DNA of 64,000 nucleotides. It comes from Eledone cirrhosa. Taxonomy: Eukaryota. How positions within the stretch are numbered: position 1 is the first letter of the stretch; every line of letters starts with the position of its first letter. The stretch lies in NCBI GenBank assembly GCA_964016885.1, contig OZ024741.1, positions 329,964,001 through 330,028,000 on the forward strand. Reading direction: 5' to 3'. The notes beneath the pieces were generated by a model, which made no database searches, was not told the DNA's origin, and saw only the letters and a list, made by a program, of their open reading frames with translations. This document shows positions 6,227 to 32,884 of this stretch, one piece after another. Position numbers and translations under genes: made by a program.

Positions 6227-6271
6227 ATGGTGGTGCGCTGTTTGTTTTGGCTGTTACTGCTCTTTGCTGGG
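6227..6271 (+). CDS. Host gene coding exon 1 (signal peptide MVVRCLFWLLLLFAG)
   Basis: gaaATGG start context, 45 nt, hydrophobic, ends at the donor GG|GTAAGT in phase 0; joins exon 2 to complete a signal peptide. Confidence 0.75.
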
Positions 6272-6324
6272 GTAAGTTCCATATGAATTGTTTGATATTT
6301 TTTTAATTCTTTCTTTTGGGAGAC

Positions 6325-6690
6325 ACATGCCCTTGTGGTAAGGTTGTTGAACTTACGATTATAATGTCATGGGTTTGATTCTTGGATTGAGTTGTGTTTT
6401 ATGTTCTTGAGCAAAACACTTCATTTTACATTGATCCAGTATACTCAACTGAAAAAAAATAAGTACCAGCAATAGCTGGATGGTTTAACCTTGCGATGGA
6501 GAAAGTTTTGTACTCTTGGTCGCTTCATGCTACGGATCAGGATAAGCACTGGCCTGATGAGCCTATTTTTAATCATGCAATGGATTGGCATCCTGTCCAG
6601 GGAGAGTCTTGTACTCTCAGTCACTTCAGACCATGAAAACCAGGATAAGCACTGGCTTAATGACCCTCTGGGCTCAAAACAGACCTTAGA
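6325..6690 (+). mobile_element. Degraded tRNA-derived SINE with conserved central domains
   Basis: Degenerate A/B boxes, CORE-like ttcttgagcaaaacacttc, and a duplicated gcgatgga...cgcttcatgctac...gataagcactggc block. Confidence 0.5.
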
Positions 6691-7249
6691 CATTTTTTTC
6701 TTTGGGACTGAAATAACATTATCTATGAAAGTTAATTCATGTTTTATTAAGTTCAGTTGTGGAGATATGCCATTAATGATGATGTAATATTGTGAATTTA
6801 TAACATTTTCCCTGAGATAACGACCTTTAAGTGGCAATTGTCAGATATTCTGTAATTATACTCAGAATTAATTAGAGGTTAAGGGCTGAAACACTTGCTT
6901 GAGAGGGCATTCCTTACCTGAAGACCTGTTATCCAGCTCTTCTGGGGGTTTCTTACCACTGTGGCTTGTTCCTGTCATTGTTTTGTTTTTGTTTTTTTTT
7001 GTTTGTTTTTTTTCTATTAAGTCTCTAGAGAAGTTAAGGGCCACAACACTTGCTTGAGGTTTTTTTTTCTCTGAAAATCTTCTGCTGACCATCCCTCCTG
7101 AAAATTTCTTACCACATTGATTAATTAACAATTAGTAGAAGCTACAGATTCTTTATCTTGGTGGATAGGCTTGTTAAAAATGGAGTTCGAATCTTGATTT
7201 TCATTAGAATCACTATTTGCTATTTTAGATTTTTATCTAAATCAGCTAA

Positions 7250-7410
7250 GGTGGCAAATTGGCAGATTTGTTAGAACATCTGATAGAATGCTTTGCAGTT
7301 TTCATTTTGACTCTCTGCTCTCTGAGTTCAAATCCTGCCGAGGTCAACTTTGCCTTTCATTCATTTAAGATCAATAAAAAAAAAAGTACCAGTCAAGTGC
7401 TGGGTCGATT
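7250..7410 (+). mobile_element. Nin-domain SINE, degraded
   Basis: B box gagttcaaatcc followed by gccgaggtcaactttgcctttcat. Confidence 0.75.
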
Positions 7411-7649
7411 TTTCTTCAATATCTCTTTCTCACTCTCTGTCCTCTGGAAGAAATCTGCTGTATTCAGACCTGGAGAGGATTGGGATCCACCAGGTTTAAA
7501 ATTGCTCTAGAAATGCTGAATGTCAGTATGGCTCTCCCATGACTCCCCCAGGAGTTACGGAACTATGCAGACATCTAAATCAGCTAATGGATTACTTGCT
7601 AAGTTTTTGTTTTAACTGATATTAGAGTTAACAATGTAAACTGGAGCAA

Positions 7650-7915
7650 ATCATGCTCGACCTCACCTTACGTGATAGGAAAAGCAACACTTGGATTCAA
7701 AAGCAGATTGGAGTGAAGGACATAATCAAGACCATCAAGAAGGGCACTCCTGGCATAGTGGACACCAAGTTAACGAAAAAGAACCAGAGAGCAGCCAAAG
7801 GCCAGAAAGTGTGATTATCTTACCTGATACCTCAGACCCACATGGCCCAATATGGCCAGAGATAGAAAATGGTAGAATTCAACTGGGAAGGGGTTCCACC
7901 AACAGGAGTGAGAAG
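7650..7915 (+). mobile_element. Old RTE-clade LINE C-terminal remnant
   Basis: Reads IMLDLTLRDRKSNTWIQKQIGVKDIIKTIKK, typical of the RTE ORF C-terminus. Confidence 0.55.
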
Positions 7916-8009
7916 GCCATATATTTTATATTTTGGGGATTTTTAGAATTATGAAAATGCTTATTTATTTTGCTGTGGTTACTAAAGGCTACATAGCCTG
8001 TTGATTATA

Positions 8010-8213
8010 GGGCAGTGGATTAGCAAAAATCGGTAGAGCATCAAACAATATGTTTGCGGCATATACTTACAGCTCTTTATTGTTCTGAGTTCAAATCCTG
8101 CCAAAGTTAGCTTTGCCTTTCATTGTTAAGGGATCGATAAAATAACACACTGGTCTGTATTTAATCGCCTTTCTTTCGAATTGCTGGCCTTATGCTTGAA
8201 GGAGAAACAATTA
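8010..8213 (+). mobile_element. Nin-domain SINE, degraded
   Basis: A and B boxes, ctttgcctttcat...gataaaata and the ttgctggcctt tail. Confidence 0.7.
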
Positions 8214-8337
8214 CTAATCCTTACATTATCAGGTTGACATTTATTTACTCTAAGTGTAACAATATTACATACCGATAACCCTGTTTTTACTGTTACTGGT
8301 GCAGTAGGTTATTCTGTTATGATAACCTAATCTAGCT

Positions 8338-8512
8338 AAGACCTCATTATAATGGACAGTATTTTGGATAAATATAGGGTCAGACCTCATTATAATAGAC
8401 AGGCTGTATTTTGGTTAAATATAGAGTCAGACATCATTATAACAGTATTTTGGTTAGATATAGGATCAGACATCATTATAACAGAGAGTATTTTGGTTAA
8501 ATATAGGGTCAG
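8338..8512. repeat. Minisatellite, about 4 x 42-48 bp
   Basis: Repeated agac(c/a)tcattataa...gtattttggttaaatatagggtc. Confidence 0.85.
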
Positions 8513-8514
8513 AA

Positions 8515-9975
8515 CCCTACGAGTGAGGTGACATGAACCCTCATGTCACCTCACTCGTCCTTCCACTTTCAGTAAGGCGTACCCCAACTTCCGGCAGCAA
8601 CTCCCCCTCCCTGATCTCAAGGATCAATCATTCCATTACATTACTCCATGTCAAAGTCCACCATCCACCTGGTTGGTCGGTGGTCCCATTGCAATCTCTG
8701 CACTGTTGGGGCGACACTTTCCTTCTCTTCCTCGAAGTCCGTCAAATGAATGACTCTATGTACATCCAAGACGTGAGGTGGCATTCCGTCCACAGACACG
8801 TTGTTTCGGGAATTTATGACTGTGTTACCATTCCCTTTCCCCACTGAGATGTTCAACGCACATTCAGGGACTTGACCCAGACTTTTTCGCCCACTCGTAC
8901 GAATGCATTCTCTCTCTCCTCCACTGGTTGTTGTGACACCATGCACAAATGTTGCTATTCATATCTATATATTGCCCTGTGTGGAACTGACTCCTTGGCC
9001 TGTCCCACCCAAGAATATCTCTCTCAGTGTCCACGCAATTTCCTCCACAGTCCCCGTCTCCATTTCCTTCCATATCGCCATCCGTCCTGGCCCACAATCG
9101 ACCATTGAAAGATATGTCCCTTGTCGGTAGTGTTTCACATCCATCACGAATCATTTCCAGTTGTACTTCACCAGGATACTACCCCCCGTTTCATGCACGC
9201 CTGGGGCAGGGTCGATAGACAGGCATCTGTCACAATTCCCAACCACTTTCTAGATATTCCGTCTGCTAACGTTGGAGTCAATTTTTCTGGCTAGGAACAG
9301 GGTCCTATCCACTCCCATATGATGCAGGGTATGCAACCTCCTCAACTCCAAGTTACTCAGCTGACACACCAAAGCAGACATCCGTGACCTCACCGACTGC
9401 GGGGCATGACATGTGTTTGTTCAGTTCACAAACGTCCATCACCGGTCTGACCTTGTTCTTCATTAGTGGCAACATTTCACTCTTTATCTCTTCCTTCCAA
9501 GGGATCAATATGCCTTCCTTGATCCATCTTTGCACCTCTCCCTCAAACTCACTTCTGGCATCGCCTTTCAAGGTATGCTGGTAGCAGCTCATTCAGTTCA
9601 CTTCAGCATTAGAGGTTCTCCTTTCCAGTACCACTCAACTACCCACCATTGCCCATCAAACACAGCCCTGAAATCTTTGTCCTGTATGGTGTGAACAGTA
9701 TGTTTTTCTTTGTGGATCTCCTGTTCCCCTGCTGCACAATCACAGCGCATGATGTTCCCATGCTACCAAACGTTACCCCGACCTTACTCATTGTAACACC
9801 TCCTAAGCAGCCAATCGCATCCATGCTCATTACCACATCAATTCCATCCATCACATGGTCAATAATGATTGCCTGCAGCCTTATTTTTCTTCCCCGTACC
9901 ATAATCTCCACCTCATTACTACCTCTGCATCTAATCTCCCTGCCATCAACTGCCCTCACACTATTCATCCCACTC
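8515..9975 (-). mobile_element. Degraded, internally deleted Gypsy LTR retrotransposon (protease, RT start, integrase, PPT)
   Basis: KNKVRPVMD, DVKHYRQGTYLSMVDCGPGR and VNSRNNVSVDGMP-type motifs; PPT gagatcagggaggggg; same family as 40299-42683. Confidence 0.85.
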
Positions 9976-10352
9976 TACTTTTTAACCACCGCTCTCCATG
10001 AATTTCTGTCCATAGTATTGACATCGGCCAAGTCCCATTTATACAAATCACTCTTCACGCACTCTAACCACGTCTTCCTTGGTCTGCCGCGATCTCTAGT
10101 GCCAGGGATTGCCAAGTGAGTGATGGAGTTGATGCAAGGCGTGGCTCGCTGTACATGTCTGTAGCAATGGAGACGTCTGTGAAGGACAGCAGTGATCTCA
10201 TCCACACCCAGCTTCTGATGGAGCAAGGTTGAAGGGGTCTCATCTTTCAATTTGGTGCCACAGATCCACCTAATCATGGCATGATCATTTCGCCTGAACC
10301 ATTGCAGATCTGAGGTATTCGGAGCCCATGTCTCACTGCCATTGCAGAGCAA
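9976..10352 (-). mobile_element. RTE LINE C-terminal fragment
   Basis: GSETWA...MIRWICG...RGRPRKTW...DRNSWR motifs. Confidence 0.85.
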
Positions 10353-10683
10353 ACACAAGCAAAAAACAAGATGAAAAGTGCCAAGCTAATAGGAGTTATA
10401 GAGAATAAAAAGACCGAGAAAAGAGGAAAGAGTGAGGACTGTAAAATTTTACCATAGTAATTTTATTTATTTAAAATCCATTCTCAAGAGAGGATCCGTG
10501 TATAGGTATTTAAAGAGTAATTGGAGAAGAGTTGTTCTTTGGCTGGCAGATTAATTTAAATGTATGAAAAAAACAGTAAAATAAGTTTTGTGTGTGCATA
10601 GTGAAAGACATGTGAGAATATGTGTGTGATAAATGTATGTGCGTCAGTGTAAGTTTGAGTAAGGAAAGACATGTGAAAATATA

Positions 10684-11584
10684 TCTATATATATAAAACT
10701 GAGGATGTCTGTCTGTGTGTGTGTGAGTTTGAATCCCTAAAACTCGAGAAGCACCCAACCGACTGTTTTCAAACTTTACACATGTAATACTTATGTTTCA
10801 AGGAGTGTTCTGAGCAAAAAGAATTTCAAATTTTCAATGCCCTAGGGACCGCATTAGGCGATTTAGCGATCTCTCTCTCTATAATTCTTAGTATTTCTCT
10901 TTTTAGATAGATACATACATATAACGTCGCGCCCTTATAATATCTGTCTGTATGTCTGGCTGTCGGCATTACGTCACTTCCCTGAGGATGTCTGTCTGTG
11001 TGTGTCTGTGAGTTTGAATCACTGAAACTCGAGAAGTATCCAACCGATTTTTTTCAAACTTTACACGTGTATTACTTGTTTCAGGGAGTGTTATGCACAT
11101 AAAAAATTCAACATTTCTAGGGCCTGCATTAGGTGAAAAACTGCGTTTTTTAAGCTTTTTAGGGGCTTTTTGAGGCGTTACGTCAGACCGATTTCCTTGA
11201 AATTGTAACTATGTATTAATCGGTCTCTTCTTCATACCGTGAGCAAAGAAAATCCAACTTTTTTATGGCCTAGGGCCTGCATTAGGTGAAAAACTTCATT
11301 TTTTCAGCTTTTTATGACTTTTTGGAGGCGTTACGCCTAGCCGATTTTCCCGAAATTTCAAGGCATATTATGCACATAAAAAAATTTATTTTATGATCCC
11401 CTAGGTGAAAACTTGCATTTTTCCTGCTTCATCGAGGAAAATCTTAAAGATTATACAGCCATCAGAGTATTCGGTTTATTTTCTTTACATATTGTCCAGG
11501 CATGCAGTTTTTTCACGATTAGTTCTGTTGGCGGCCTGCGTTCCAAAATACCTTATCCCGTGTAACACCGGGTACCACTGCTAG
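10684..11584 (+). mobile_element. Non-autonomous Helitron, 901 bp
   Basis: 5' TC, 3' hairpin cccgtgtaacaccggg followed by CTAG, inserted between A and T with no TSD; empty site present in the inverted arm at about 15591-15610. Confidence 0.92.
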
Positions 11585-11739
11585 TGTATGATATAATGGA
11601 AAACCCTGTGTGAATATGTGTATTATATATGTATGTGTGTGTGTGTGAGTGTAAGTGTGTGTAGAGAGAGAAACAGATTTAATTTGAATGAATGAGTGAA
11701 AACATTATAGTTTAATGTGAGTATGTGTATGATATATGT

Positions 11740-11773
<34 letters not shown>

Positions 11774-12260
11774 AGTGTAAGTCTGTATGTGTAGAGAGGA
11801 ACAGATTTCAGGGTAAGGGAGTAAAAGGTGTATGAGTGTAGTTGATCTGTGACATTTCTTTGTTTATTTGTCTCAGGCATACTCCTTAATACCTTCCAGA
11901 TATTCATGCTGTTAGGACTCAGATGTCCCTGAGAATGGGCAGCTGGGATGTCAGAACGATGGCATAATTATGTTGGATAAGTTAAATTAGCCATTCTGGC
12001 ACACTACTTTTCATTCAATGATTGATGGCAAGTTTTAGTCACTTGATCAAGAGGCCTCCTTTGATATTCAGCATGGCTATACTGCGTTCAGTAGCTAAGA
12101 CAGTTTGGTTATGTTATTGTCTCAGTTTCCACGTTAAATGATGTTTGTGGAAAGAAGAGGAGTTGGTGTTAATATGTTCTTTAATTCAGAGATGTAATGG
12201 TTGAATAGTGCTGCCTATGTAGAATAGATTGCACTTGTTACATTCTAACCTGTATACCAT

Positions 12261-12408
12261 GAAAAACATGGGCGGAGGTGGTGAGAGCAGATCTCATATT
12301 GCTGAAACTCACGGAGGAGATGACGAAGGACCGTGACAAGTGGAGAGATGCTGTGCTGAATAGGACCCATCCCACCCTTGCAAGCAGGGAAAAGCGGACG
12401 TAAAATGA
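12261..12408 (+). mobile_element. Short RTE 3' end inserted in the PLE arm
   Basis: KTWAEVVRADL...DRDKWR followed by the tail gcaagcagggaaaagcggacgtaaaatga; absent from the opposite arm. Confidence 0.75.
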
Positions 12409-14469
12409 TAGGCAACAATTAGTGTTGCAGATTGGGCAATTGGCTAGGGTGCATCCGTTATCTTCACTGGGGGGTTGTTTTGTGGATAGGCATCTCCACA
12501 GGGAAGGTCCCGAGTAAGCTAGCCGGATATTGGGTATCTTTCTCCTGATGGCTTTGCGTATTGGATTGGTGATTTCCTCACTGTGGTGTGGGATCTTGAG
12601 GAAGCAACTATTGTTTGCGTTGGTCCGGTCTCTGGGTCTGGTGTTTTGCCATGGGTTGGAGAAGGAAGCTGGGTAGCCATTGATCTCTAACACCCTGTGG
12701 GATTGTCTGATATAGGTGGCTCTATTTGTAATGTCGCTTGCATATGCAAGCCATTTTGTTAAAGATGTACCCTCTTTTAGAACTGTTGGGAGGGCACATC
12801 TAGGCTGAAGGCGTACCTGTTGGATTTGATGGTGTCAAGTTCAAGTTGGTTGAGTTACTGGATGACTTCATCCGAGCTGTAGATGTGGCCCGGGAAGTTT
12901 GTTAAGAAGGGCTTTAAAATCTTGGACAAAAGCCAAGAGGTTTTGTATGATGGTCCTTCAACACTGGAAACAATGGATCTGATTTTCAAGTCCTTCTTTG
13001 TGGGTTTTGATCAGGTGGTAAAAGTTGGGCATCCTGCTGTTTTCTCGTTATGTACTGGAATCTCTTCGAGAGCCTTCGTCAGTCACAGATGTTGGTCCAA
13101 GTGGTATTGATCCAGTTCTCTATCAGCGCGGGTGTAATTTTGGTGACTTCCGAGTTGAAACTGTCATCATTGAGATGTTGGTAGGCTTGGCTGGTAATAA
13201 CATAAAACTCTTTTCCTTTGTCCAAAGGGAGGTACACGAGGTTCTTAGATCTGAGGTTGCTTAGGGTAGCGAGTTGTGATCTGGAGAGGTTGTGTTGAGT
13301 ATGTGTGTGTTTTTGTAGAATGTTAGATATGGTAAATTTTAACCATGAGAGTTTAATCTCGAGATCATGGTTGGCAGGTGGAGGGTGGAATAAGTTGTTG
13401 AGATGGTAGGTGTGAAATTTTGAGTTCATTGTGAAAGTCTCGGAAGTGTCGATGAAAGACTTGAGCTTGTAGGCGGCTCTGTAGAAATTGGCCTCAATGT
13501 TGAGTTTGAGCCTGTCATTGAGTTGTTGCGTCAGCATGAACTTGGGTGTGAGGCAGAGGCGTTGCAGTTCATCATTGGAAAGAGACCTGAATAGATCAGT
13601 GATGGGGTGTAGGTTGTCATTGATCTGCGGGTCAAGGATGGTGGTATTCATAGAGTCGGTGGGGTTAGTGTTGTCATGTTTCTGGTGGTCAACCTGTTGG
13701 ATTTTTACTCCGTTAATGTAGGTGATGTGGCAAGGAGAAGTGTTGTACTCACACTTAACACTATTCCTTGCTTTAGTTTGCTTTTTAAGGGTAGAGTTGA
13801 ATTTTCATTTGGGACGTTTTTTCTCAAATTGGACCCGGGCATGGTAGCACTGGTCGATAGCGGTTGTAGTTTTATGGAGCAGGCTATTGGGTGTTGTTCT
13901 AAGTAATGGCTCTAAGATTGTTCATATGTGTAGGTGGAGCTGGTGGTGTAAATTTCATGTAAATTTTTTTATGCAGGTGTGGTGTATATGTTTGATAAAG
14001 CCTGAAGAATTGAGGCCTCGAGGGAGGCAGATATTTCTGATGGTGTTCAGAATCACATGTTCTTCAGACAGTGTTTGGAAGCTCAACAATGAATGCAAGA
14101 TTAAAAATGTCAAGGTAATTGGTGTTATAGAGAATAAAAGGACTGAGAAAAGAGTGAGAACGGTAGAATTTTACCGTAGCAATTTTAATGATCTCAAATA
14201 TTTTCGGATTCTCAAGAGAGGATCCAAGAACAGATGCAATTATTTAGAACAACACCCGATAGCCAACTCCATAAAACTACAAACATTATCGACGAGTGCT
14301 ACCATGTCCGGGTCCAATTTGAGAAAAAAACGTCTCAAATTCAAACTCAACTGGACGCTTAAGAAACAAACTAAAGCAAGGAATAGCACTAACAGCTCAA
14401 AAAACGGGTACATCTTTCATGAAATGGATCTCATACACAACCGATGCAGTCACGTTATGAATAGAGCCA

Positions 14470-14638
14470 GTATCGGTAGAGGGTCGGACGCCATGCTTTC
14501 CAGCATAGTTACGTCCCTTTACGATCTGAGTTCAAATCCCGCCGAGGTTGACTTTGCCTTTCATCCTTACGGGGTCGATAAAATAAAGTACCAGTAATGC
14601 ACTGGGTAATTGCTGGCCTTGTGCCAAAAGTAGAAACA
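14470..14638 (+). mobile_element. Nin-domain SINE with 16-bp TSD
   Basis: TSD gttatgaatagagcca at 14454-14469 and 14639-14654; B box and Nin domain. Confidence 0.9.
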
Positions 14639-16176
14639 GTTATGAATAGAGCCACCCATATCAGACAATTCCACAGGGTATTAGAGATCAATGGCTACCC
14701 TGCTTCCTTCTCCACCCCATGGCAAAACCCTAGATCCAGAGACCGGACCAATGTAAACAATAGTCACTTCCTCAAGATCCCACATCACAGCAAGGAAACC
14801 ACCAATGCCATATGCAAAGCCATCAGGGGAGAGATACCCAGTATCTGGCTAGCTTACTTGGGTCCAACTCCCCAGTGAAGATAACAGAAGCACCCTAGCC
14901 AATTGCTCTATCTGCAACACTAATTGTTGCCTACATATCTACGTGGTATACAGGTTAGATGTAACAAGTGCAATCTATTCTACATAGGCAGCACTATTCA
15001 ACCATTACATCTCTGAATTAAAGAACATATTAACACCAACTCCTCTTCTTTCCACAAACATCATTTAACGTGGAAACTGAGACAATAACATAACCAAACT
15101 GTCTTAGCTACTGAACGCAGTATAGCCATGCTGAATATCAAAGGAGCCTTCTTGATCAAGTGACTAAAACTTGCCATCAATCATTGAATGAAAAGTAGTG
15201 TGCCAGAATGGCTAATTTAACTTATCCAACATAATTATGCCATCGTTCTGACATCCCAGCTGCCCATTCTCAGGGACATCTGAGTCCTAACAGCATGAAT
15301 ATCTGGAAGGTATTAAGGAGTATGCCTGAGACAAATAAACAAAGAAATGTCACAGATCAACTACACACATACACCTTTTACTCCCTTACCCTGAAATCTG
15401 TTCCTCACTACACATACAGACTTACACTCCACACACACACATACATATATCATACACATATTCACATTAAACTATAACGTTTTCATTCATTTATTCAAAT
15501 TAAATCTACGTTTCTCTCTACGCACACACACTTACACTCACACACACACATACATATATAATACACATATTCACACAGGTTTTTCCATTATATCATACAT
15601 ATATTTTCACATGTCTTTCCTTACTCCAACTTACACTCATGTAATTACATTTATCACACACATATTCTCACATGTCTTTCATTATGCACACACAAAACTT
15701 ATTTTACTGTTTTTTTCATACATTTAAATTAAATCTACCAGCCAAACAATAACTCATCTCCGATTACTCTTTAAATACCTATACACGGATCCTCTCTTGA
15801 GAATGGATTTTAAATCCGAAAATATTTGCAATCAACAAAATTGCTAAGGTAAAATTTTACTGTTCTCACTCTTTTCTCAGTTCTTTTATTCTCTATAACT
15901 CCTATTACCTTGGCACTTTTAATTTTGCATGCATTGTTGGGCTTCCAAATATTTAAACATATTTAAAGTTAAATGTATCATCATCATCATCATCACCGTT
16001 TGACGTCCGTTCTTCCACGCTAGCATTGTATATTTGGCAATACACTGTATGCTTAATTAAAAGCATTTTGAAGACCTTACGCTCTTGTTTTGAAGTAGTG
16101 ACTATGTCACTTACTTCTTTTTTCAACAAACAAAGGGAGATAAGCTCTCCCGATGATGATATATATATATATATAT

Positions 16177-18014: not shown

Positions 18015-18084
18015 GTATTTGGAATCAGTTATGCATGGTCCTGCAAATTCCAATGGCGTAAGAATAGTAAAACTACAAGCCGCA
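18015..18084 (+). CDS. Host gene exon 2 (VFGISYAWSCKFQWRKNSKTTSR)
   Basis: Acceptor ttctctgttttcAG, donor GTAAGC, 70 nt, phase 0-1; carries the signal-cleavage site SYA|W and a PAN-like CxF start. Confidence 0.75.
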
Positions 18085-20122: not shown

Positions 20123-20123
<1 letters not shown>

Positions 20124-20419: not shown

Positions 20420-20665
20420 AAATCTTCAATGCATTTCTAAAGAAAAATATCACTGGATTGAATTACTTAGATAAGAAAAACTTTAATTTATATTCGTGTA
20501 AAACGAAATGCACCGACGATAATTTATGTAAATGTTTCTACTACTGAACCGATAATCATTCCTGCAGTATAATGTCTCAGAGTATTTGTGATAAGATTTT
20601 GAATTCGAGCTTACCAGATATAAACAATACCTTTACTGTATTGACGGTTTACCATGGAAAGAAGG
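20420..20665 (+). CDS. Host gene exon 3, PAN/Apple-like module; in-frame TGA at 20545-20547
   Basis: Acceptor tttttctttctAG, donor G|GTAAAT, 246 nt, phase 1-1; reads CKTKCTDDNLCKCFYY*TDNHSCSIMSQSIC. Confidence 0.75.
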
Positions 20666-22130: not shown

Positions 22131-22584
22131 ATGTGTGGCCGATTGTCACAATTGGTGGTGAATTGCCCCCCTTTTTTCTTTTTTTTAATGGTTTTTTTTG
22201 TATTATATTTTATATATTTTTGTGTATTGTATTTGTTATTTGTGTTTGTATTTTATTTTTAAAAAAATTGTCAGCAATTTGTAATGTTATTTATGTATAT
22301 AATTTATAAAGTTTACATACACTCTACTTTCTTTCTATCCTTGTTTGTTTTTCTCTATCTTTTTACCTTATTTATTTTCTCCTTGTTTTCTTTCACTCCT
22401 TTCTACCCCCCCTCTCTTCCCTCTCTATTTCTATCTATCTCTGTAGCCCTCTCTCTCTCTCAGTCATATGACCCCCACTGCCTCTCCCTTCCCTCTCTCT
22501 CTATATATTTGTATATAACTAACTATCTATCGCTCTCTCTCACTCATATTACCCTCACTAACTCATTATAAACATCTCTTGCAG

Positions 22585-22818
22585 ATCTCGGGAAAAAGTT
22601 CTCTTTTGGGTCTATGACTGTGAAATATCCAAATATATCTGCCTACTTCAGTTCACAGTGCAACTGTTACAGGTTTTGCCTAGATACTATCAACTGTTGT
22701 GGCTATTCTTACCATAATAAGTGGTGTCAATTACTTTTCATGACCAATTGTTGGAACTACTCTGTCCTTGTCCTACAACCAGAAGAAAAACTTGTTCACC
22801 TAACTCATCCCATAACAT
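22585..22818 (+). CDS. Host gene exon 4, second PAN/Apple-like module
   Basis: Acceptor tctcttgcAG, donor GTAAGT, 234 nt, phase 1-1; reads CNCYRFCLDTINCCGYSYHNKWCQLLFMTNC. Confidence 0.85.
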
Positions 22819-23329
22819 GTAAGTAGTTTGTATATATATCTATATATTATGTTTAACGTAATCCTATTGTCTTATGAAACTAATTCTGCAATTAACATTT
22901 GATGAAATCGTCTATGTTTTGCTTCATGGTTGGATGATAAAGCTGGCTCATCGAAATATGTAAAGAATTTTCGCGGAATTAAAATTATAAGTAAATTTCC
23001 AGTCCAACCTTTTGTTAATGTTTTTAATGAATACTTAACTCTATTCCTGCTCCAGCCACTGGATACTACATCTACGATGGATGATTTGCATAACATTCAG
23101 TGCCTTAATTTTGTTAACACTTTATGTTAGGTTGTTTCTTAATGGGTAGAACTGGTGGTTCTGGTTAGTAAATGATGATGCAACAAAATTAAAGCACTGA
23201 ATTTTATACAAATCATATATATATATGATGCTGAGTGGGCCGTGCTAAATCTTTTATCTTTTCTTTTAAACGAGTGGCGATGGTTATACCACCTTTCTCT
23301 AAATTTAAAAGAAGTTGCACCAATATAAC

Positions 23330-23493
23330 TATCTATCTATCTATCTAAGGCGGGTAAAATTCCCGAGATCCATGGACGAGCTCTCTCCAGCGGTCTCTGT
23401 CCCTCATTATCGCTGCCATGTCCTGCGTCTCCAACAGACCAGTGTCTGTCCTTAGGGCATCAACATACGTTAACCTTGGTCTTCCTCTTCTAT
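23330..23493 (-). mobile_element. RTE-like LINE 3' end with (TAGA)n tail
   Basis: RRGRPRLTYVDAL..DTGL...DRDRWR then a stop and (ctat)n on +. Confidence 0.75.
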
Positions 23494-23964
23494 AAGAGTT
23501 ATTATTCGTTTTAACTATGCATTCATAAACTAAATTCCGATCAAGACAATTATTATTTAGTGGACAAAAATTACGATTTTTACATTTGCAATTATTTCCG
23601 TTACTATTCAAAATTCCCTCACTGTGTACGTATGTCGGTAGGTTTCTCTCATCTATGCTAATGGTATTATCATTGCTATATGAGATGATGTTTATTCTAT
23701 TAGTGATATTATGTTTACAATTGGGAGTTATCTCCCTATGTTTAATCCCTAGATTTCTATTATTAATTTTTGCTATATAGTAGTCAAGTAGGAAAGTTTA
23801 ATTGTGTGTCGTTTAAAAATTTTATTGTATTTATGTGATCTAGGAAAACATTTGGAAGAACTTTCAAACAACATTTGAATGATTCGAAGTCACAGTTCAT
23901 CTGAAACATTTGTAAGGGATTAAAAACTATTATTTGATGAAAGAAGATTGAGTTTCCTTTAATA

Positions 23965-24023
<59 letters not shown>

Positions 24024-24115
24024 AGAGAGATACATATATCATCAACATTATCATACATGAATTTAAATAGAAACAGAAGCTTCAATGTAATATTTTGACC
24101 ATATAATATAGTCTT
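23494..24115 (-). mobile_element. Degraded Penelope-like element (RT end to GIY-YIG start)
   Basis: CKCKNRNFCPLNNNCLDRNLVYEC linker/GIY-YIG; VDDICI and FLD remnants. Confidence 0.7.
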
Positions 24116-24212
24116 ATAGTGCAGCATATAAACCCACTGAACAGAACAATGATGGGTATCAGCACATATGGGATACCCATCTGTTTCCATTCAGTGGGTT
24201 TATATGCTCCAT

Positions 24213-24375
24213 TGTCGGACGCCATGCTTTACAGTACAGCTACGTCCCTTTACGGACTGAGTTCAAATCCCGCCGAGGTTAACTTTGCCTTTCATCCTTA
24301 TGAGGTCGATAAAATAAAGGACCAGTAATACACTGGGTAATTGCTGGCCTTGTGCCAAAAGTAGAAACAATTATT
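24213..24375 (+). mobile_element. Nin-domain SINE, 5'-truncated
   Basis: Near-identical to the SINE at 14470. Confidence 0.88.
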
Positions 24376-25109
24376 AGACTATATTATATAGTCAAAATAT
24401 TTTGTCGAAGCTTCTATTTCTATTTCAATTCTGAAGAAGAAAATAGATGCTTTTGTTCATTTGAACCACATATTATTCACCTAATGACGTAATTCTTCTT
24501 GCACACATTTCACTCATCCCAAGAGAATGTCTTCACATACTACCGTTATGACTTTCTATTTTCTAAAGGCGAAATTTGGTTATAATTTTTTTTAATACAT
24601 ATTCAAGGTGCCTATAAACTCTATCACTTGCAGCTGCTAAATGTACAACAAAGTTATATATGTATATATACTAAACAGAGTTAACTGGGACTGCATAAAT
24701 GTGTATATAAATTTACATATTTTGTATATTTAGAGGTATATAAAATTGTTTATCATTTCTTTTTCAAATCACAGGGAAATATGTATATTTGGCATGTTTA
24801 TATGTCTATATACTAAAAATGTGTAAATTTATATACATAGTTATGGAGTTTTGGTTACTTCATCTCTGTGTATATATTGATATAAGTTTGCTGCACACTT
24901 CAGCCAACTTAATAGGCGTAATATATATCTTAATTAGCTACCAACATAAGCACTAATAATATGCAAATTAGTACATCTATTTCGGTATATTTCTATAACT
25001 AGACAGGTCAGATGACTGTGTCTCTCTCATACATTCCATTCTGGCATGCTTTCCAATGCATTTATATGCATATATTGTCATCATGAATGACCATAGTTTT
25101 GCACTTAGA

Positions 25110-25362
25110 AATTTTCCCTCTGAGGCACAAGGCTGGACAAGGGGTGTTTGTGGAAGGCCAGCAATCTCCCCTCACGCCACCAATGTTATCCAAGTGAAAA
25201 GCAATGGCTAATACAGCTTGACAGCAGTGATGTTGCAACTCATTTCTACAGCTGAGTAGACTGGAGCAATGTGAAATAAAGTGGACACAATGCATCACCC
25301 AGTCTGAGAATCAAACTCACAACCTCCCAATAGCAAGCCCAATGCTCTAACCGCTAAGCCAT
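25110..25362 (-). mobile_element. CORE-type tRNA-derived SINE
   Basis: Minus-strand A box tggcttagcggt, B box gagtttgattc and CORE-like ttgctccagtctactcagctgtagaaatgag. Confidence 0.75.
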
Positions 25363-25394
25363 ATACCTTCACTTGTATGTGTATGTGTGTGTGT

Positions 25395-25937
25395 TCTCCT
25401 GTTGTGGACAGTGCCAGGTCGGGTGACCTTGTCTTGTTCATATGGGAACTAATTTTGGCTTGGTTTCTACAGCTGGATGCCCTTCCTAACACCAACCTCA
25501 TTTACAGTGAGTGTTGGGTGCTTTGTTCCGTTGTGCCAACACAACCACTTTACAGTGTGGGCTAGGTGCTTTTTTGCAGTGGGAGGGGGCTGGGGGCATA
25601 ATGTCTATATGCTTCAGCTTCGGCTTGTACCTGTGGGAAGTCTTCTGTATTACTGCGTGATGCCAGAGGTCACGGTCCTGTGTCATTACCTTTGAGAGGT
25701 GCAATCGGGTAAGGTCGACTTTTATTACCTTATCCCAGGTCTTCTTGGGTTTCCCCACTCAAGGCTTCCATCGACTTCTAGTGCTCTGCAGCTTTTTATG
25801 CAGCTGTCATCCTTCATACGCATCACATGTCCATACCAACACAACCAACTCTCCTGCACACAGCATTTGATTCCTCTTATGTTCAGTCTCTCTCTCAATT
25901 TGTTTATTCTTTGCCATTTGCGTATATTACTATTACA
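25395..25937 (-). mobile_element. RTE LINE 3' fragment
   Basis: [12 protein letters not shown] motif and a 3' UTR shared with the copy at 16177. Confidence 0.9.
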
Positions 25938-25980
25938 CACACACACATATATATATACATATACATATATATATATATAT

Positions 25981-26640
25981 TTATTAAAATAACAGATTAA
26001 AGTTTAAGCAAAGAATCGCTGCTTTCACCCTTAACGGGATCTTCTGAAACTAACAAAGTCAATCTGTGAATGCAGAAGTAAATATTTCAAAAACGTTGCA
26101 ACCGGAGGAAGACAGGAAGATGATACTTTGGTTCGTGGAAACGTTCCCTGGCAAAGAACGGGAAAAAACGAATATAATACGTCATTATTTGGAGCGGTGA
26201 AAAACAATTACACGCAAAGACAAAACCACGTTTATGGTATAAAAGAAGTCGTAGACTTATATTCTATTAGGTGGTTCAACGAGACGTTCTCTGGCAATGA
26301 ACGGAAAAAACGAAGATAATACGTCATATGTGGAGCAGGGAGAACAATTGCACGCAAAGACAAAACCACGTAAATGGTATAGCAGAAGTCGTAGACTGAA
26401 TTCTAACTAGGAGACCGAATGAATCTCGGCTTTAGAGTTAAGAATAAAGTAAATAAAATACAGAGGTAATTGAAATTAAATAAATACTTACATGCAACCA
26501 TATACGTACATACACAAGCATACGCACGTACACAACCCCCCCCCCAAAAAAAAAACAAGCACGCACATACAGAACCCACGCAACGCCTGTACCCACACAC
26601 ATACGAATGTATACACCAAATACACATAAAAATATATATA
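25981..26640 (-). mobile_element. Penelope 3' UTR/pLTR fragment
   Basis: Close match to 51960-52520, which is attached to a PLE ORF. Confidence 0.85.
26001..26051 (-). ncRNA. Hammerhead-like ribozyme, variant core CAGAAGA
   Basis: AGUUU-CAGAAGA-UCCC guuaa GGGU-GAAA-GCA..UGC-UU-AAACU. Confidence 0.55.
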
Positions 26641-26666
26641 TATATGTGTGTGTGCGTGTATAAATG

Positions 26667-27462
26667 ATCATCATCATCATCACCGTTTTACGTCCGTTCT
26701 TCCATGCTACCATGGGTTAGACGGGTTGTCCTGTTGTGGGCAGTGTCTGGTCGGCTGACCATGCCTTGCTCATACAGGAACTGATTCTGGCTTGATTTCT
26801 ACAGCTGGATGCCCTTCCTAACACCAACCTCATTTACAGTGAGTGGTGGGTGCTTTTTTTCCGTGGCGACTACACATCCACTTTACAGTGTGGGCTGGGT
26901 GCTTTTTTGCCGTGGCACCTCCACGACCACTTTGCAGTGGGAGGGTGTGGGGGCATATTGTCTATATGCTTCAGCTTGTACCCATGGGAGGTCGGGTACT
27001 CTGTATTACTGCGTGACGCCAGAGGTCACGGTCGAGTATCATCGCCTTTGAGAGGTGTAATTGGGTAAGGTCCGCTTTTATCAATTCATCCCAGGTCTTC
27101 TTAGGTCTCCCCACTCCGCGGTTTCCATTGACTTCTAGTGCTCTGCACCTTTTTATGCAGCTGTCCATACCAACGCAACCGCCTCTCCTGCACACAGCAT
27201 TTGATTCCTCTTATGCTCAGTCTCTCTCTCAATTCATTTATGCTTTGCCGTTCGCGTATATTACTATTACACATCCATCGGAGCATACAGGCTTCATTTC
27301 TTTCTAATCTACGTAAGTCTTCCACCTTCAGCGCCCAGGTCTCACTACCATGTAACATTGCTGTTCGGATACACGCATCATACAGTCTGCCTTCTGGGAG
27401 AAGCCTTTTGCAGCTAGCAGTGGCAGTAGTTCCCTGAACTTCTTCCATCCCGTTCTTACCCT
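26667..27462 (-). mobile_element. RTE LINE 3' fragment with (GAT)n tail
   Basis: GSETWAL and RRLRWYG motifs; (CAT)n at 26668. Confidence 0.92.
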
Positions 27463-27476
27463 ATATATCCCGTTCT

Positions 27477-27525
<49 letters not shown>

Positions 27526-27711
27526 CATATATATATATGCCGTCATTACAACAGCAGAGGTCCGACGAGCCCCCAACTCCAGAGCTGGGCCCGATCGACA
27601 CATGTCGAACCCTGAGCCGATCAATAGCAAAATATGCATCACCAATCAATAAACGCAATGAAGGTATAACAAATCGTCCATGTATTATATATATATATAT
27701 ATATACACATA

Positions 27712-29009
27712 TGACACTCATAGCTGAATCAATGGCCGAGCTAGAGAAGAAATTCCAAACATGGAAGCACGGCCTAGAATCAAAAGGACTTAAAATTAAC
27801 CTGGCTAAGACTAAAGTTCTAGTTTGTAGGAAAGAAAATAAGGCGGCGGTCCCTTCTGGGAAATGGTCATGCTCAGTGTGTAGGAAAGGCGTAGGTAGAA
27901 ACTCCATTTTATGTCCTAAATGCAAAGTATGGGTGCATAAAAGATGTAGTGGGATCACAGGTAAGCTAACTAAGAACATAGATTTTACATGTGGCCGGTG
28001 CTCTGGTGCAATGAGTAGCAGCAAGTGCCCACAAAATACTAGCTCTTTCAATTGCGCAGAGGGTTCTATAGAAATAGTGGACAGCTTCCGTTACCTGGGC
28101 GATAAAATCAGCAGTGGGGGAGGGTGCTCTGAAAGTACAGTAGCTAGAGTCAGAACTGGTTGGGAAAAGTTCAGAGAGCTTATACCATTATTAGCTGCTA
28201 AAGGGTTCTCCCTAAAAATGAAAGGCAGGTTGTACGATGCCTGCATACGAACAGCAATGTTGCACGGCAGTGAGACCTGGGCATTGTGTGCAGAAGATAT
28301 ACGCAGACTAGAGAGGAACGAAGCTTGCATGCTCCGCTGGATGTGTAACAGTAATATACGTGAACGGCAAAGTATAAACGAACTAAGGAAAAAATTAGAA
28401 ATAAGAGGGATCAGATGTTGTTTACTCGAGAGAAGGCTACGTTGGTATGGACACGTGATGCGCATGAAAGTCGATAGCTGTATAACAAAGTGCAGGGCAA
28501 TAAAGATAGACGGTAGCCACGGAATAGGCAGACCTAGAAAAACCTGGGACGAGCTGATAAACTCCGACCTCACACACTTACACCTCTCCAAGACAATGTC
28601 ACTGGACCGAGACCTTTGGCGGTACTCAGTAACAGAGAAGACCCGCCTTACCTAAATACATAGTAAAACCTACTACAGCCAGTAGGCATCTCTAACAAAA
28701 TACACCCCCCATCCACACCACCCCGTTCTATGTAAAGTTATGTTGGTGCCGCGCCATCCAGGCCGAAACAAATGAGATCGTGTAGGTGTCACGACAAAAA
28801 AACACACAGTCCACGCTGTAATGTGGCCGTGTAGGCAACACGGTAAAAACCTCCCAGACCCACACTGTAAATGTGGTTGGTGTTAGGAAGGGCATCCAAC
28901 TGTAGAAAACCTGCCAGACAGTCCTATGCGAGCAAGACAATCACTCTTGCCTCAAGTGGGACTACCCCCGTCCAAACCCATGCAAGCGTGGAACACGGAC
29001 GTTAAACGT

Positions 29010-29040
<31 letters not shown>
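27712..29040 (+). mobile_element. Young 5'-truncated RTE LINE (open C-terminal ORF to 28655) with (GAT)n tail
   Basis: Uninterrupted GLKINLAKTK...CSVCRKGVG...YLGD...GSETW...GRPRKTW; tail at 29010-29040. Confidence 0.95.
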
Positions 29041-29349
29041 ACACACACACATACATATACATATATATACATATCCAAACATCTTGAGAAAAAAAATATA
29101 TTAATAATAATGGTAATAATAATGATAATGATAACATATAAATAAAACCAATAGCAGGCAGGTTGGAAGAAAAGAAAAACACAGAGGAATTGAATCCAAA
29201 AGTTCAAAATGAGGGTGGCCTCTCACACATAATGTCATCTTTCCAATGTCAGCTTTATATAACTGACATGTAAATGTCATTAACCAATCCTATGTTTTAA
29301 AAGGAATAAACAATCCTACGTTTTGAAAGAATAAACAAAAAATCAAAAA

Positions 29350-29610
29350 TAAACTCAAATTATAATTAAATAAATACGTATATAACAAGCGCACACACAT
29401 ACCTACATGTAAATACACATATGTTCGGAGACGTACGTCAACCAAAACACAAAGTACACATATACACACACCCTACATTTGTACGAAGCCGCATACTCTC
29501 ACAGAAGCAAAACTCACGTATACACATAACCAAAAGCATATGTACCAGAATATATAATATATACGCTATAACATATACAATCAAATATACGTACCTTCAC
29601 AAAACATATA
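29350..29610 (-). mobile_element. Penelope 3' UTR fragment
   Basis: Matches 52590-52865. Confidence 0.8.
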
Positions 29611-29620
29611 TATCTGTGTG

Positions 29621-30295
29621 TCATCATCATCATCATCATCGTTTAACGTCCATCTTCCACGCTTGCATGGGTTTGGACAGGAATTTTCCACTTGAGGCAA
29701 GATTGGTTGTCTTGCTCGTATAGGACTGTCTGGCGGGTTTTCTACGGCTGGATGCCCTTTCTAACACCAACCATGTTTACAGTGTGGACTGGGAGGTTTT
29801 TACCGTGTTACCTACACGGCCACATTACAGCGTGGACTGTTTTTTTTGTCGTGACACCTACACGACCTCATTTGTTTCGGACTGGATGTTGTGGTACCAA
29901 CATAACTTTACATTGAAAGGGGTGGTGTGGATGGGGTGGGGGTAGTGGGACGGGGGTGTATTTTTGTTAGAGGTGCCTACTGACTGTAGGTTTCGCTTTG
30001 TACTTAGGCAAGGCGGGTCTTCTGTATTACTGTGTAGCACCAAAGATCTCAGTCCAGTGACATTGTCTTGGAGAGGTGTAAGTGTGTGAGGTCGGAATTT
30101 ATCAAGTCGTCCCAGGTTTTTCTGGGTCTGCCTACTCCGTGGCTACCGTCTATTTTTATCGCCCTGCTCTTTTTTATACAGCTGTCGTCTTTCATGCGCA
30201 TCATGTGACCGTATCAACGTAGTCTTCTCTCGAGTAAACAACATCTGATCCCTCTTATTCCTAATTATTCCTAATTTCTCCCTTAGTTCGTTTAT
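29621..30295 (-). mobile_element. RTE LINE 3' end with (GAT)n tail
   Basis: Same subfamily as the copies at 27712, 39633 and 57495. Confidence 0.92.
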
Positions 30296-30365
30296 ATATA
30301 TATATTTGTTTTGCAAGGTTTTTGATATGAAATCGTGTGTTGAAACAAATGTTATATTTGGGGAA

Positions 30366-30462
30366 GGTCATATTGTTATAATATTGCCAGAAATAATAAT
30401 AGAACACACTCACTGTGAATGTGTTCTATTATTATTTCTGGCAATATTATAACAATATGACC
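30366..30462. repeat. Perfect 43-bp-stem hairpin within a PLE pLTR-like fragment
   Basis: ggtcatattgttataatattgccagaaataataatagaacaca followed by its exact reverse complement. Confidence 0.9.
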
Positions 30463-30483
30463 CTCAATATAACAATAAATATA

Positions 30484-30820
30484 TCATCATCATTTTACGT
30501 CCGCTTTTCCCTGCTTGCAAGGGTGGGACGGGAACAGATTCTATCTTGATTTCTACAGCTGGATGCCCTTCCTAACACCAACCTCATTTACAGTGAGTGC
30601 TGAGTGTTTTTTTTCCGTGGCGCCTACACGTCCACTTTACAGTGTGGGCTGGGTGCTTTTTTGCCGTGGCACCTCCACGACCACTTTACAGTGGAATGAT
30701 AGGGACCCCAGTCCTATCATCTCATTTCTACAGCTGAGTAAACTGGAGCAATGTGAAATAAAGTGTCTTGCTCAAGGAAACAACACGTCACTGGGTCTGA
30801 GATTTGAACTCACAACCTTT
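30484..30820 (-). mobile_element. RTE 3' UTR fragment (30484-30693) followed by a CORE-SINE fragment (30718-30820)
   Basis: Matches the 16200-16455 tail and the 25240-25325 SINE respectively. Confidence 0.75.
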
Positions 30821-30860
30821 CAAAAACAAGAAAGACGGTTTCATTTGTACATCACTATTT

Positions 30861-30935
30861 ATTTTGTTATATGTATTTCAAAGACGTAGGGCAGTTGTAT
30901 AAGAACCGCCCTGTGTGTTTTCTTCAGACAAGAAT
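30861..30935 (-). ncRNA. Type I hammerhead ribozyme (partly decayed stem II)
   Basis: UUGU-CUGAAGA-AAA..AGGGCGGUU/AACUGCCCU..UUU-GAAA-UACAUA-UA-ACAA. Confidence 0.6.
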
Positions 30936-31564
30936 CCAAACGAGATGTAAATTTCCATTGATATTTTACTGGTCATACGTATTATTCGCTTCGCCAACCA
31001 GTAAGCATATCTCCAAAATTCTTAAGTAGCAGTTCTTATATGTGCGAGAGATAGTTATTCCAATTGGTGTTGCTGTTTGTGAACTGGCTAGGGTATCAAG
31101 TTACCAGATTCGGCGCTTGATTCATAGTAAGGCATGTATGAACTGTAAGTCTATTTTTTATTTTTTCATACTAGATTTTATTCACTTAGATACTAATTCT
31201 AATTTTAGATATTTGTACTTTCATACTCATATTATAATGTATCTATATATTTATGAATGTTAAATTAATTATTTGGTGGTCTATTTAACATTATTTACTG
31301 AAGTTTTAACTATATACTCTACAAAATGTCTTATCAATTTTGTGTAAACAAGAATTAGAAATTTCAGAGAGTTTATTAATAATTTTATGCTTACTATTTA
31401 TGATGGGTAGAGTATCTGTAGTACCGAGACCACATCCCCTAGATATAGATCCATTTATATTTGGAAAAGCATGTGAGACCAAGAAAAGGAGTATACCACT
31501 TGTTTATTTTTTTAGCGACCAAATCAGTTTTGACAGGTCATGATGAAAAGGAAGATGAAAAAGA

Positions 31565-32212
31565 TGAAAAGCTGCCTAAACAATTATTTTATGGGGAACT
31601 GACCAAAGGAAAAAGGCCACAGCATAAACCAAAGAAGTGGTTTAAGGATGTTATAAAAGACAATCTTAAAGCTCTGAAGATTGATATAGAGAACTTGGAG
31701 AGACTGGCTGAAAACCATACATCATGGAGAAAGATCATCAAATATGAATGTGATGTCTTTGAGAGAAAGTGAGTGGAGCATGGTGTTTTGAAACGTTCAC
31801 CTCATAAGTGAGACTCAAGTGCACTGCCTGCCAGCAAAAATCCAGCAGAAATTAAGGTGCAATGTATGTGGCCGATTTCTTCTATTAAGAGCTGGTTTTG
31901 TTAACCATCTTAAATTACACAAGCCTGAGAGAAATCGAGCCATCTGTCAGATGGTTCTACTGCCACACACTCTACAGTAAATTTCCAGTGAATGTGGCTT
32001 AATTTGCAAGCCAGCAGGTGGACTGACCAGACATGGTAAAATGCATGAGGACACACCCCAGCCGGTTTTGCCAGGAGACAGACAGTTTAAGTGTCACATC
32101 TGTGAACGTATCTGCAAAACAAAAGCGGGTCTGAAAAGTCAACTGCGTGCACATGATCGTGAAATGTTCAAGGAAGGGATGACACTCTTCTGGCAAGAAG
32201 CAACAATCGGCA
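31565..32212 (+). mobile_element. RTE-BovB-like LINE 3' end with C2H2 zinc fingers
   Basis: LPKQLFYGELTKGKRPQHKPKKWFKD and FKCHICERICKTKAGLKSQLRAH. Confidence 0.85.
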
Positions 32213-32336
32213 TATATATCATATATAAATTCTATATTAGTGAATAAGTTGTGTTCCGTGTATTAGTTTTAAGCTATTCTTACAGTGTATATGTCTAGGT
32301 TAAGAGTGTTTACTTTTTTTTCATCTTATTTTGTAG

Positions 32337-32884
32337 GGAAATTTGACCGTTCCAATAATTACCCATCTGGTTCCATTAACTCAACAAAGTCCAGTTCTGA
32401 TGACTCAACAAAGTCCAGTTCTGATGACTCAACAAAGTCCAGTTCCACCAGCTGGATAACGACCAGTTTTATCAAATCACCAACACCAAGTGGTTCAAGC
32501 AGTGGTATAATACAATTAAGCAGCATACAACATACCAGTGCCATAATAGATGCTTCTTCCATAACAGCTACACGGTCCATATGTTCCTGTGAATGTGATC
32601 GAGGGACACAACCACCTCCCACTAAGGAAGAGCTGGAAGATCTCAAGAATAAATTACAAAAGGAGCTTGCTGTAGACAAAAAGAAACTGTCCAGTACAAT
32701 TCGAGCTAAGACCAGCGCCCCTGACGAACGTACATCGGCTACATGTATAGGATCGGTTGGTGTAATTCTCCTGTCGGCTTTACCTATCTTCATCATAATT
32801 ATTGATCTCCTCCAGCTCTATGGAGACCTGATAACTTTTTACAAAAATCTATCAAGGCTCTGTTCCAACAGGACACAAGGTTAG
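32337..32884 (+). CDS. Host gene terminal exon 5: Ser/Thr stalk, CxCxC and coiled juxtamembrane motif, TM helix, short tail
   Basis: Acceptor tcttattttgtAG in phase 1; open frame to TAG; CSCEC...LAVDKKKLSSTIRAKTSAPDERTSATCIGSVGVILL...D; 24-bp tandem repeat encoding STKSSSDD. Confidence 0.9.

Follow-up and report, generated by a model that had tools for sequence, protein, structure and literature searches.

Results

A gene for a predicted membrane protein, with a single premature stop

The window analysed here, a stretch of 64,000 nucleotides of Eledone cirrhosa (contig OZ024741.1, positions 329,964,001 to 330,028,000), holds a gene of octopod type whose predicted product is a single-pass membrane protein and whose reading frame is broken by one premature TGA, and with a probability of roughly 0.78 this is a recent nonsense mutation that would turn the allele into a null. 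An ordinary recent mutation, rather than an RNA-edited stop, is the most likely origin of the codon. The features of the locus, numbered within the window, are as follows:

6227..6271, plus strand: putative exon 1, with ATG, hydrophobic signal-peptide core and GT donor of phase 0
18015..18084, plus strand: putative exon 2, with AG/GT sites, phase 0 to 1
20420..20665, plus strand: exon 3, six-Cys module A; tblastn E 6e-13; symmetric (phase 1-1), 246 nt
20545..20547, plus strand: premature TGA (codon 81) with 118 nt between it and the exon 3 donor, in a Gln column of the homologues
22585..22818, plus strand: exon 4, second Cys module B; tblastn E 1e-7; phase 1-1
32337..32884, plus strand: exon 5, with stalk, CxC, coiled segment, juxtamembrane motif, transmembrane (TM) helix, short tail and TAG
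32379..32445, plus strand: perfect, frame-preserving 24-nt tandem repeat in the stalk, 2.8 copies
33012..33017, plus strand: AATAAA, likely polyadenylation signal, 128 nt past the stop

The exon chain had been proposed in a sequence-only reading, and its coordinates, splice sites, intron phases, length and single internal TGA were all reproduced: the five exons join into 1143 nt, or 380 codons and a terminal TAG, all four introns are of the GT...AG type with phases 0,1,1,1, and the join contains no stop besides the TGA, no frameshift and no loss of a splice dinucleotide. The locus is confirmed as a real gene with its exon chain as first described, exons 3 to 5 being borne out by homology while exons 1 and 2 are those that we infer. 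Octopus proteins match exons 3 to 5 in order and on one strand (tblastn E of 4e-41 for exon 5, 6e-13 to 2e-12 for exon 3 and 1e-7 for exon 4), and by this similarity these exons are not a chance chain. The last residues of two homologous predictions, P0013 and P0009, look as if translation had continued through a phase-1 GT donor where exons 3 and 4 end, and probably have this origin. Contigs of four runs over 17900-32950 continue across the introns, and among the matches listed, in which repeats dominate, none of them forms an exon-exon joint.

Exons 1 and 2 are the predicted start of the gene, put forward less firmly than exons 3 to 5. Both have good splice sites and each is unique in the genome; exon 1 is the sole non-microsatellite signal-peptide-like start among 11 candidates in 1-20420, and the exon 2 acceptor accounts for two of the three phase 0-to-1 candidates within 6400-20300. 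Control stretches of equal length yield several comparable mini-exons by chance. Exon 1 gave no significant homology and exon 2 no homology support, and their translation was no closer to the O. vulgaris N-terminus than shuffled sequences were (p 0.17); in the Octopus homologues the 5' ends are mostly missing or unalignable.

Octopus homologues and domain architecture

The homologues, all of them uncharacterised, are LOC118765931/LOC118765932 of O. sinensis, CAI9732728-9 of O. vulgaris and LOC106880439 of O. bimaculoides, one UniRef label among them reading 'Apple domain-containing protein'. They share with the E. cirrhosa locus modules A and B, the stalk, the CxC-coil-TM end and the tail, at 67% identity over the last 114 amino acids and about 35-45% in the Cys modules, and the locus is the best match to them in the genome. 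Where these Octopus species carry the gene in several copies or with its A-B modules repeated, the E. cirrhosa genome has one A-B pair: the subfamily is single-copy there, as is exon 3 itself, and tblastn of the Octopus proteins found no paralogue in the 200 kb on either side of the window. A metagenome scan with the module A alignment (A2) produced 482 pattern matches and no confirmed relatives.

Module A had been described as PAN-like, which is supported by comparison of its sequence, although it falls just short of the Pfam cut-off. Six cysteines (C26, C30, C36, C38, C48 and C56) are invariant across the seven rows of alignment A2, and their pattern around a helix and an aromatic strand is what we take to be the PAN/Apple pattern. 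With X placed at the stop, PAN_1 (PF00024) does match the module (E 9.4e-4), but at 19.4 bits against a gathering cut-off of 21.4; the Octopus homologues of the module reach 15-17 bits, and the Atlas clusters of P0009 carry PAN_1 at 0.92. The two halves of exon 3 taken separately matched no Pfam family, exon 3 as query found no candidate among short homologues, and the best E in a profile search of PDB sequences was 0.03. The AF2 model of exon 3 has a pLDDT of 68 (pLDDT of the two models, 52 and 68), and the top Foldseek rows for these models were SML-2, factor XI, MIC4 apple domains, saratin and kallikrein, of which SML-2 and saratin are presumably PAN-type. None of these rows reached E <= 0.001 (6e-3 for a two-module homologue, 3 or worse for exon 3 alone), and Z in the VIA structure comparison was at most 4. 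Skipping of the symmetric exon 3 would leave the frame intact, a point that the sequence-only reading had missed.

Of the two Cys modules originally proposed, the second is present with Octopus homology (34-43% identity to six segments) but has no Pfam counterpart, a search up to E 10 returning no family; its similarity to module A is weak (hhalign E 0.029). The Ser/Thr stalk and TM helix, also part of the original description, are borne out by composition (49% S/T over residues 205-280) and by a hydropathy peak near residues 335-357, the predicted TM helix.

The premature TGA and its age

At the codon 81 column, Gln stands in seven of the eight homologous module-A segments, the remaining one, a chimeric prediction, having a gap, and Trp in none; these segments are partly dependent, since two are unnamed proteins that scarcely differ from each other, and O. 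vulgaris and O. sinensis supply four. In remoter PAN-like segments, aligned by eye, the column holds Gln, His, Lys or Ser, and never Trp. Exon 3 retains 15 of 16 invariant columns as against 22 of 63 variable ones (p 3e-5), and exon 4 retains 21 of 32 columns. Because the invariant columns are so nearly complete and no second lesion is present, the loss is likely recent, as the sequence-only reading had supposed by default; under assumed mutation rates, the time since loss is bounded at roughly 2-5% neutral divergence per site. Judged at the protein level, the gene appears to have been under purifying selection until recently.

The stop would most simply have arisen from the Arg codon CGA, one transition away from the Gln codon CAA, and CGA>TGA is a common nonsense route in human genes according to the consulted part of PMC12046619. 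The CpG observed/expected ratio is 1.26 in exon 3 and 0.12 in exon 4, and this lack of CpG depletion in exon 3 weakens the methyl-CpG route to the stop. Stops more than 50-55 nt upstream of a junction are NMD-sensitive in human genes (PMC12046619, same part), and an mRNA carrying this TGA would be an NMD target; any protein made from it would be a secreted stub of 80 residues that has half of a PAN fold.

As for signs of a unitary pseudogene, the assembly contains the disabling lesion and no further lesions were seen, a state compatible with a very young loss or with a segregating allele. The family has many loci here and the gene several copies in Octopus, so single losses are plausible. The subfamily, in turn, is single-copy here, so that no close copy could stand in after a fixed loss, and heterozygosity of the allele is favoured over a fixed pseudogene.

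Alternative explanations of the stop

Alternatively, the gene could remain functional if exon 3 were skipped or a cryptic in-frame site used: the resulting 298-aa receptor would have module B only, and the stop would be tolerated in an exon that is alternative. With its 246 nt and phase 1-1, removal of exon 3 leaves a predicted open frame of 298 aa, three in-frame GT precede the stop and one in-frame AG follows it, and module number varies among the Octopus homologues. We nevertheless think this improbable: the exon 3 acceptor is the most pyrimidine-rich of the four, the cryptic sites are, by eye, poor fits to the consensus, and exon 3 is no more decayed than exon 4, so it has not long been out of use. 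Slightly less probable again is an assembly consensus error in an intact gene. Contigs of four runs over 20365-20690 leave 20442-20650, and with it the codon, uncovered, in a comparison from which a filter drops records. The TGA, known from the assembled sequence, is a lone lesion in an otherwise clean frame, but it lies outside any homopolymer, and chromosome-scale assemblies rarely carry substitution errors. Moreover, contigs of run X1, which may be the assembly's own sample, are identical to the assembly across exons 2, 4 and 5 (1081, 811, 297 and 535 bases), and this absence of differences argues for high local accuracy. Decoding of UGA as selenocysteine or by programmed readthrough appears the most remote of these explanations. 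TGA is the leakiest stop codon and a 7-bp helix begins at the stop (partner 20645-20651), but the +4 base is A, local folding is no stabler than in shuffles, the homologues carry Gln rather than Cys at codon 81, and there is no SECIS among eight Rfam matches up to E 10 in 32300-36000. The basal rate of readthrough at premature stops is below 1% in the consulted part of PMC12046619.

A rescue by ADAR, which the sequence-only reading had kept as a possibility, would convert A20547 so that UGA becomes UGI and is read as Trp, yielding full-length protein where editing is active. Coleoids recode heavily and have a few stop>Trp edits, two decapodiform species having one TGA case apiece (table S6 of PMC8382921); A20547 is predicted to be paired in a 7-bp helix in 401-nt folds, and the introns carry 24 inverted repeat pairs. 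The proposal nevertheless fared poorly. Trp occurs in no homologous segment, so the edit would not be restorative, and table S6 of PMC8382921 gives TGA>W counts of 0,0,0,1,1,0 as against 4,2,3,3,2,2 for TAG>W, both octopus editomes having zero. The site context is CTG-A-ACC, and the caution already raised about its 5' G was well placed: this neighbour is disfavoured across metazoans including O. bimaculoides (PMC9989829, consulted part), and edits at third positions after G affect about 1-2% of such codons versus 7-17% for CAA and TTA, which is our own ratio of tables S6 and S7 of PMC8382921, whose denominators may differ slightly. All editome counts come from these two tables. The predicted duplexes are not unusual either, although weak structures can escape such prediction: local folding z-scores of +1.4 to -1.0 are no better than shuffles, 13 of 15 control windows, with slightly longer targets, form a stronger long-range duplex than the best one here (-32.5 kcal/mol), 33 of 91 exon-3 adenosines lie in helices of equal length, and the inverted arms all lie outside exon 3, the closest 531 nt away. 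Editing rescue is unlikely, and we give it very little weight; the same small weight attaches to its stronger form, a non-restorative, editing-gated stop by which the receptor is made only where ADAR converts UGA, and a stub or degraded message results elsewhere. If true, this would be an obligatory UGA stop-loss edit in an octopod, of which the octopus columns of table S6 (PMC8382921) have none, and a simple test case for coleoid editing that gates a whole protein.

Discussion

The recent nonsense mutation that we prefer has parallels in young unitary or polymorphic pseudogenes such as human GBA3, which, in the partial account consulted, likewise involve a single allele with a truncation, in a single-copy gene that is otherwise intact; the E. 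cirrhosa lesion differs in being known from one assembly. Among titles on cephalopod premature stops, no comparable case was found. Stop-loss A-to-I editing, seen in Fusarium PUK1-like genes and rarely as stop>Trp in coleoids, resembles the present case in having an in-frame stop in an editing-rich lineage. The consulted part of PMC4817773 describes 323 Fusarium stop-loss events as UAG>UGG and mentions PUK1 orthologues with G in the genome, and TAG is the codon at 16 of the 18 stop>Trp sites listed for coleoids in PMC8382921 (table S6); E. cirrhosa, in contrast, has TGA, a 5' G and a Gln column. On the preferred reading, then, this is one more loss-of-function allele in an uncharacterised gene and matters little. 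It is of use to annotators, since gene-finding programs would report the gene split or cut short.

PAN/Apple proteins (PAN_1; factor XI/prekallikrein, the HGF N domain, apicomplexan microneme lectins) share the Cys spacing and the helix-plus-strands layout of module A, and apple-type structures lead the fold searches, if with weak matches. Unlike these proteins, the E. cirrhosa protein scores below the Pfam cut-off, has no protease domain and contains a module B that Pfam does not recognise. A literature search on octopus PAN/Apple-domain proteins found no paper. From its architecture and the lectin-type ectodomains of its family, the intact protein would likely be a glycosylated surface receptor or adhesion protein, with PAN modules that bind glycans or proteins.

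The C-terminus, with its CxC, coiled segment, conserved juxtamembrane motif and TM helix, has the features of a mollusc family. Exon 5 is 67% identical to the O. sinensis homologue over the final 114 aa (E 4e-41), and with that homologue as query a search reached 746 representatives at E <= 0.001; among the 150 listed, the majority match over the membrane-proximal segment. The Atlas clusters of this family are mainly from Mollusca and have no Pfam family in common, and on such similarity the membrane end is part of a large unnamed mollusc family; titles and abstract openings on mollusc-specific single-pass lectin families did not mention a CxC-coil-TM family. This membrane-proximal module outside Pfam, placed under shuffled lectin-type ectodomains, is the finding of more lasting value, and the E. 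cirrhosa genome holds at least 11 other loci with the C-terminal module.

Gene model and homology

All five exon segments that a sequence-only reading had joined into one gene were found, together with the internal stop described within them:

6227-6271 (+), putative exon 1
18015-18084 (+), putative exon 2
20420-20665 (+), exon 3, PAN/Apple-like Cys module (module A)
20545-20547 (+), in-frame TGA at codon 81, in exon 3
22585-22818 (+), exon 4, Cys module (module B)
32337-32884 (+), exon 5, stalk to TM helix

The four introns, which are mostly repetitive, are all GT-AG with phases 0, 1, 1 and 1, and the 1143-nt join comprises 380 codons and a TAG, the TGA being its only internal stop, as originally described. 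The contig carrying the window measures 416 Mb in a genome of 3.0 Gb.

Searching with exon 5 gave two matches among 6014 candidate proteins, from Octopus vulgaris and O. sinensis (E 4e-41, 67% over 114 aa), and the same proteins match, in gene order, exon 3 at 44-47% (E 6e-13 to 2e-12) and exon 4 at 41% (E 1e-7). Proteins of O. bimaculoides, another O. sinensis gene and two unnamed fragments came to light in wider searches. The terminal residues of two homologous predictions resemble read-through of the GT donors of exons 3 and 4. On homology, exons 3-5 belong to a real gene, and to that extent the five-exon model stands; exons 1 and 2 are proposed from splice signals, frame, hydrophobicity and uniqueness, show no significant homology (p 0.17), and mini-exons like them also occur by chance in control stretches.

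Contigs of sequencing run X1 are identical to the assembly across exons 2, 4 and 5. In X2, a run from the same sample, two contigs differ from the assembly by one letter and an 8-base gap over 22280-23090 and by two letters over 32416-32950, which may represent a second haplotype at the locus.

The in-frame stop

The column of codon 81, read between flanking cysteines with no gap between them, holds Gln in seven of eight homologous segments (partly non-independent), the eighth being a chimeric prediction gapped there. Distant PAN-like segments, compared by eye, have Gln, His, Lys or Ser, and none has Trp. This column and a frame free of any second lesion favour a recent nonsense allele, already named among the simplest readings, with a probability of roughly 0.78. 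Exon 3 keeps 15 of 16 homologue-invariant columns, compared with 22 of the 63 that vary (p 3e-5), and exon 4 keeps 21 of 32 invariant columns, so that decay has not been faster in exon 3. Under assumed substitution and indel rates, the absence of a second lesion bounds the time since loss to at most about 2-5% neutral divergence.

TGA can be reached in one step from Arg, Gly, Ser, Leu, Cys or Trp codons or from TAA, and, for a presumed ancestral codon, the route CAA>CGA>TGA takes two transitions. CGA>TGA is described as a frequent nonsense route in human genes (PMC12046619). CpG observed/expected, from small counts, is 1.26 in exon 3 versus 0.12 in exon 4, possibly reflecting different methylation, and the lack of depletion in exon 3 argues against a methyl-CpG route. 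A recent nonsense mutation would make the mRNA a predicted NMD target, since the stop lies 118 nt 5' of the next junction and the rule, taken from mammals, is 50-55 nt.

Skipping of exon 3 could keep the gene working, as this exon is symmetric and the skipped frame is open (298 aa), but we consider it unlikely, and an assembly error as the source of the TGA is also rather improbable. Selenocysteine or readthrough is extremely improbable: no SECIS was found in 32300-36000, and the Gln column argues against selenocysteine.

Rescue by ADAR, which had been left as a possibility, is very unlikely. UGI would be read as Trp, a residue that the homologues do not have at this position, so editing would fall outside what PMC8382921 calls restorative. 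The 5' G beside the A that would be edited is indeed disfavoured, across metazoans according to PMC9989829. In table S6 of PMC8382921, stop>Trp edits in six coleoids number 4, 2, 3, 3, 2 and 2 at TAG and 0, 0, 0, 1, 1 and 0 at TGA, with 0 at TGA in both octopuses; the underlying pipeline used RNA assemblies with Swiss-Prot matches, making the table a prior and no test of this gene. The ratio of its tables S6 and S7, whose denominators are possibly mismatched, gives third-position editing of about 0.7-1.6% for CGA, AGA and GGA versus 7-17% for CAA and TTA. Stop-loss edits in Fusarium are given as UAG>UGG (PMC4817773), whereas the E. cirrhosa stop is TGA. Pairing of the A at 20547 with 20645-20651 in a predicted 7-bp helix speaks for editing, yet helices as long hold 33 of the 91 exon-3 adenosines. 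Local folds of 101-801 nt around the stop have z-scores of +1.4 to -1.0, 13 of 15 control windows give a stronger long-range duplex than the best one at the stop (control targets being slightly longer), and none of 24 intronic inverted repeat pairs overlaps exon 3, the nearest arm lying 531 nt off. These pairs, at 10367-15927, 16514-17437 and 25640-30680, include one of 938 nt (75% identity) and one of 679 nt (95% identity), and are possible intronic ADAR substrates unrelated to the stop.

Predicted protein and membrane-proximal family

In the predicted protein, a hydrophobic N-terminus is followed by modules A and B, a stalk, CxC, a coiled segment and a conserved motif, and then by a TM helix with a short tail. 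It has nine sequons for N-glycosylation. The stalk (49% Ser/Thr) and TM helix (near residues 335-357) agree with the initial description. Within the stalk, a perfect 24-nt repeat (32379-32445, 2.8 copies) is a recent frame-keeping expansion.

The gene had been described as of PAN/Apple type, which was borne out in part for module A; module B has no match in a Pfam search and weak similarity to module A. Module A retains six invariant Cys, scores 19.4 bits against PAN_1 (cut-off 21.4), and its O. bimaculoides homologue has PAN_1 clusters as its nearest Atlas neighbours (0.92). Structure models are of modest confidence (pLDDT 52 and 68), with Foldseek lists headed by apple-type structures, none at E 0.001 or better, and VIA Z-scores of at most 4, actin-depolymerising folds sharing the top rank. 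Module A therefore looks PAN-like, with borderline membership. Going by this architecture, the protein may bind glycans or other proteins at the cell surface, as a receptor or in adhesion.

With the O. sinensis protein as query, 746 representatives were obtained (E <= 0.001); of the 150 listed, most align over the membrane-proximal segment, which the Atlas places among mollusc clusters without a Pfam family. Among 52 of the longer listed hits, 31 have ectodomain Pfam matches (E <= 0.001), some more than one: C-type lectin (15), IgGFc-binding (9), PAN (3), EGF (3), F5/8 (2), PLAT (2) and single cases of Sushi, Ig and Methyltransf_FA. The membrane-proximal module might serve these proteins as a common anchor for oligomerisation or signalling; our literature search found no paper on a CxC-coil-TM mollusc family.

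At least 11 further loci of the E. cirrhosa genome carry the C-terminal module (32576-32881 in the window), with frames open through the TM segment, four of them within about 1 Mb on contig C2 (283.5-284.5 Mb). Modules A and B were found at a single locus in this genome, in contrast with the several copies of Octopus species, and no paralogue was found within 200 kb on either side. The O. vulgaris predictions P0001 and P0003 resemble fused tandem gene copies whose module-A pieces are truncated or chimeric, suggesting that Octopus too has undergone tandem duplication and may have broken copies.

Probable transposable elements

Many fragments of an apparent single LINE family, presumably RTE-like from their reverse transcriptase and endonuclease motifs, lie on both strands (16780-18101, 27525-28655, 36069-38735 and others), several within introns of the five-exon gene. 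By their motifs, the ORF pieces at 40297-42366 (+) and 44167-46349 (-) resemble LTR-retrotransposon pol fragments, the one at 42699-43809 (+) a Penelope-like RT with GIY-YIG nuclease, and the one at 59978-62487 (+) an L1/Tx1-like ORF1 plus endonuclease.
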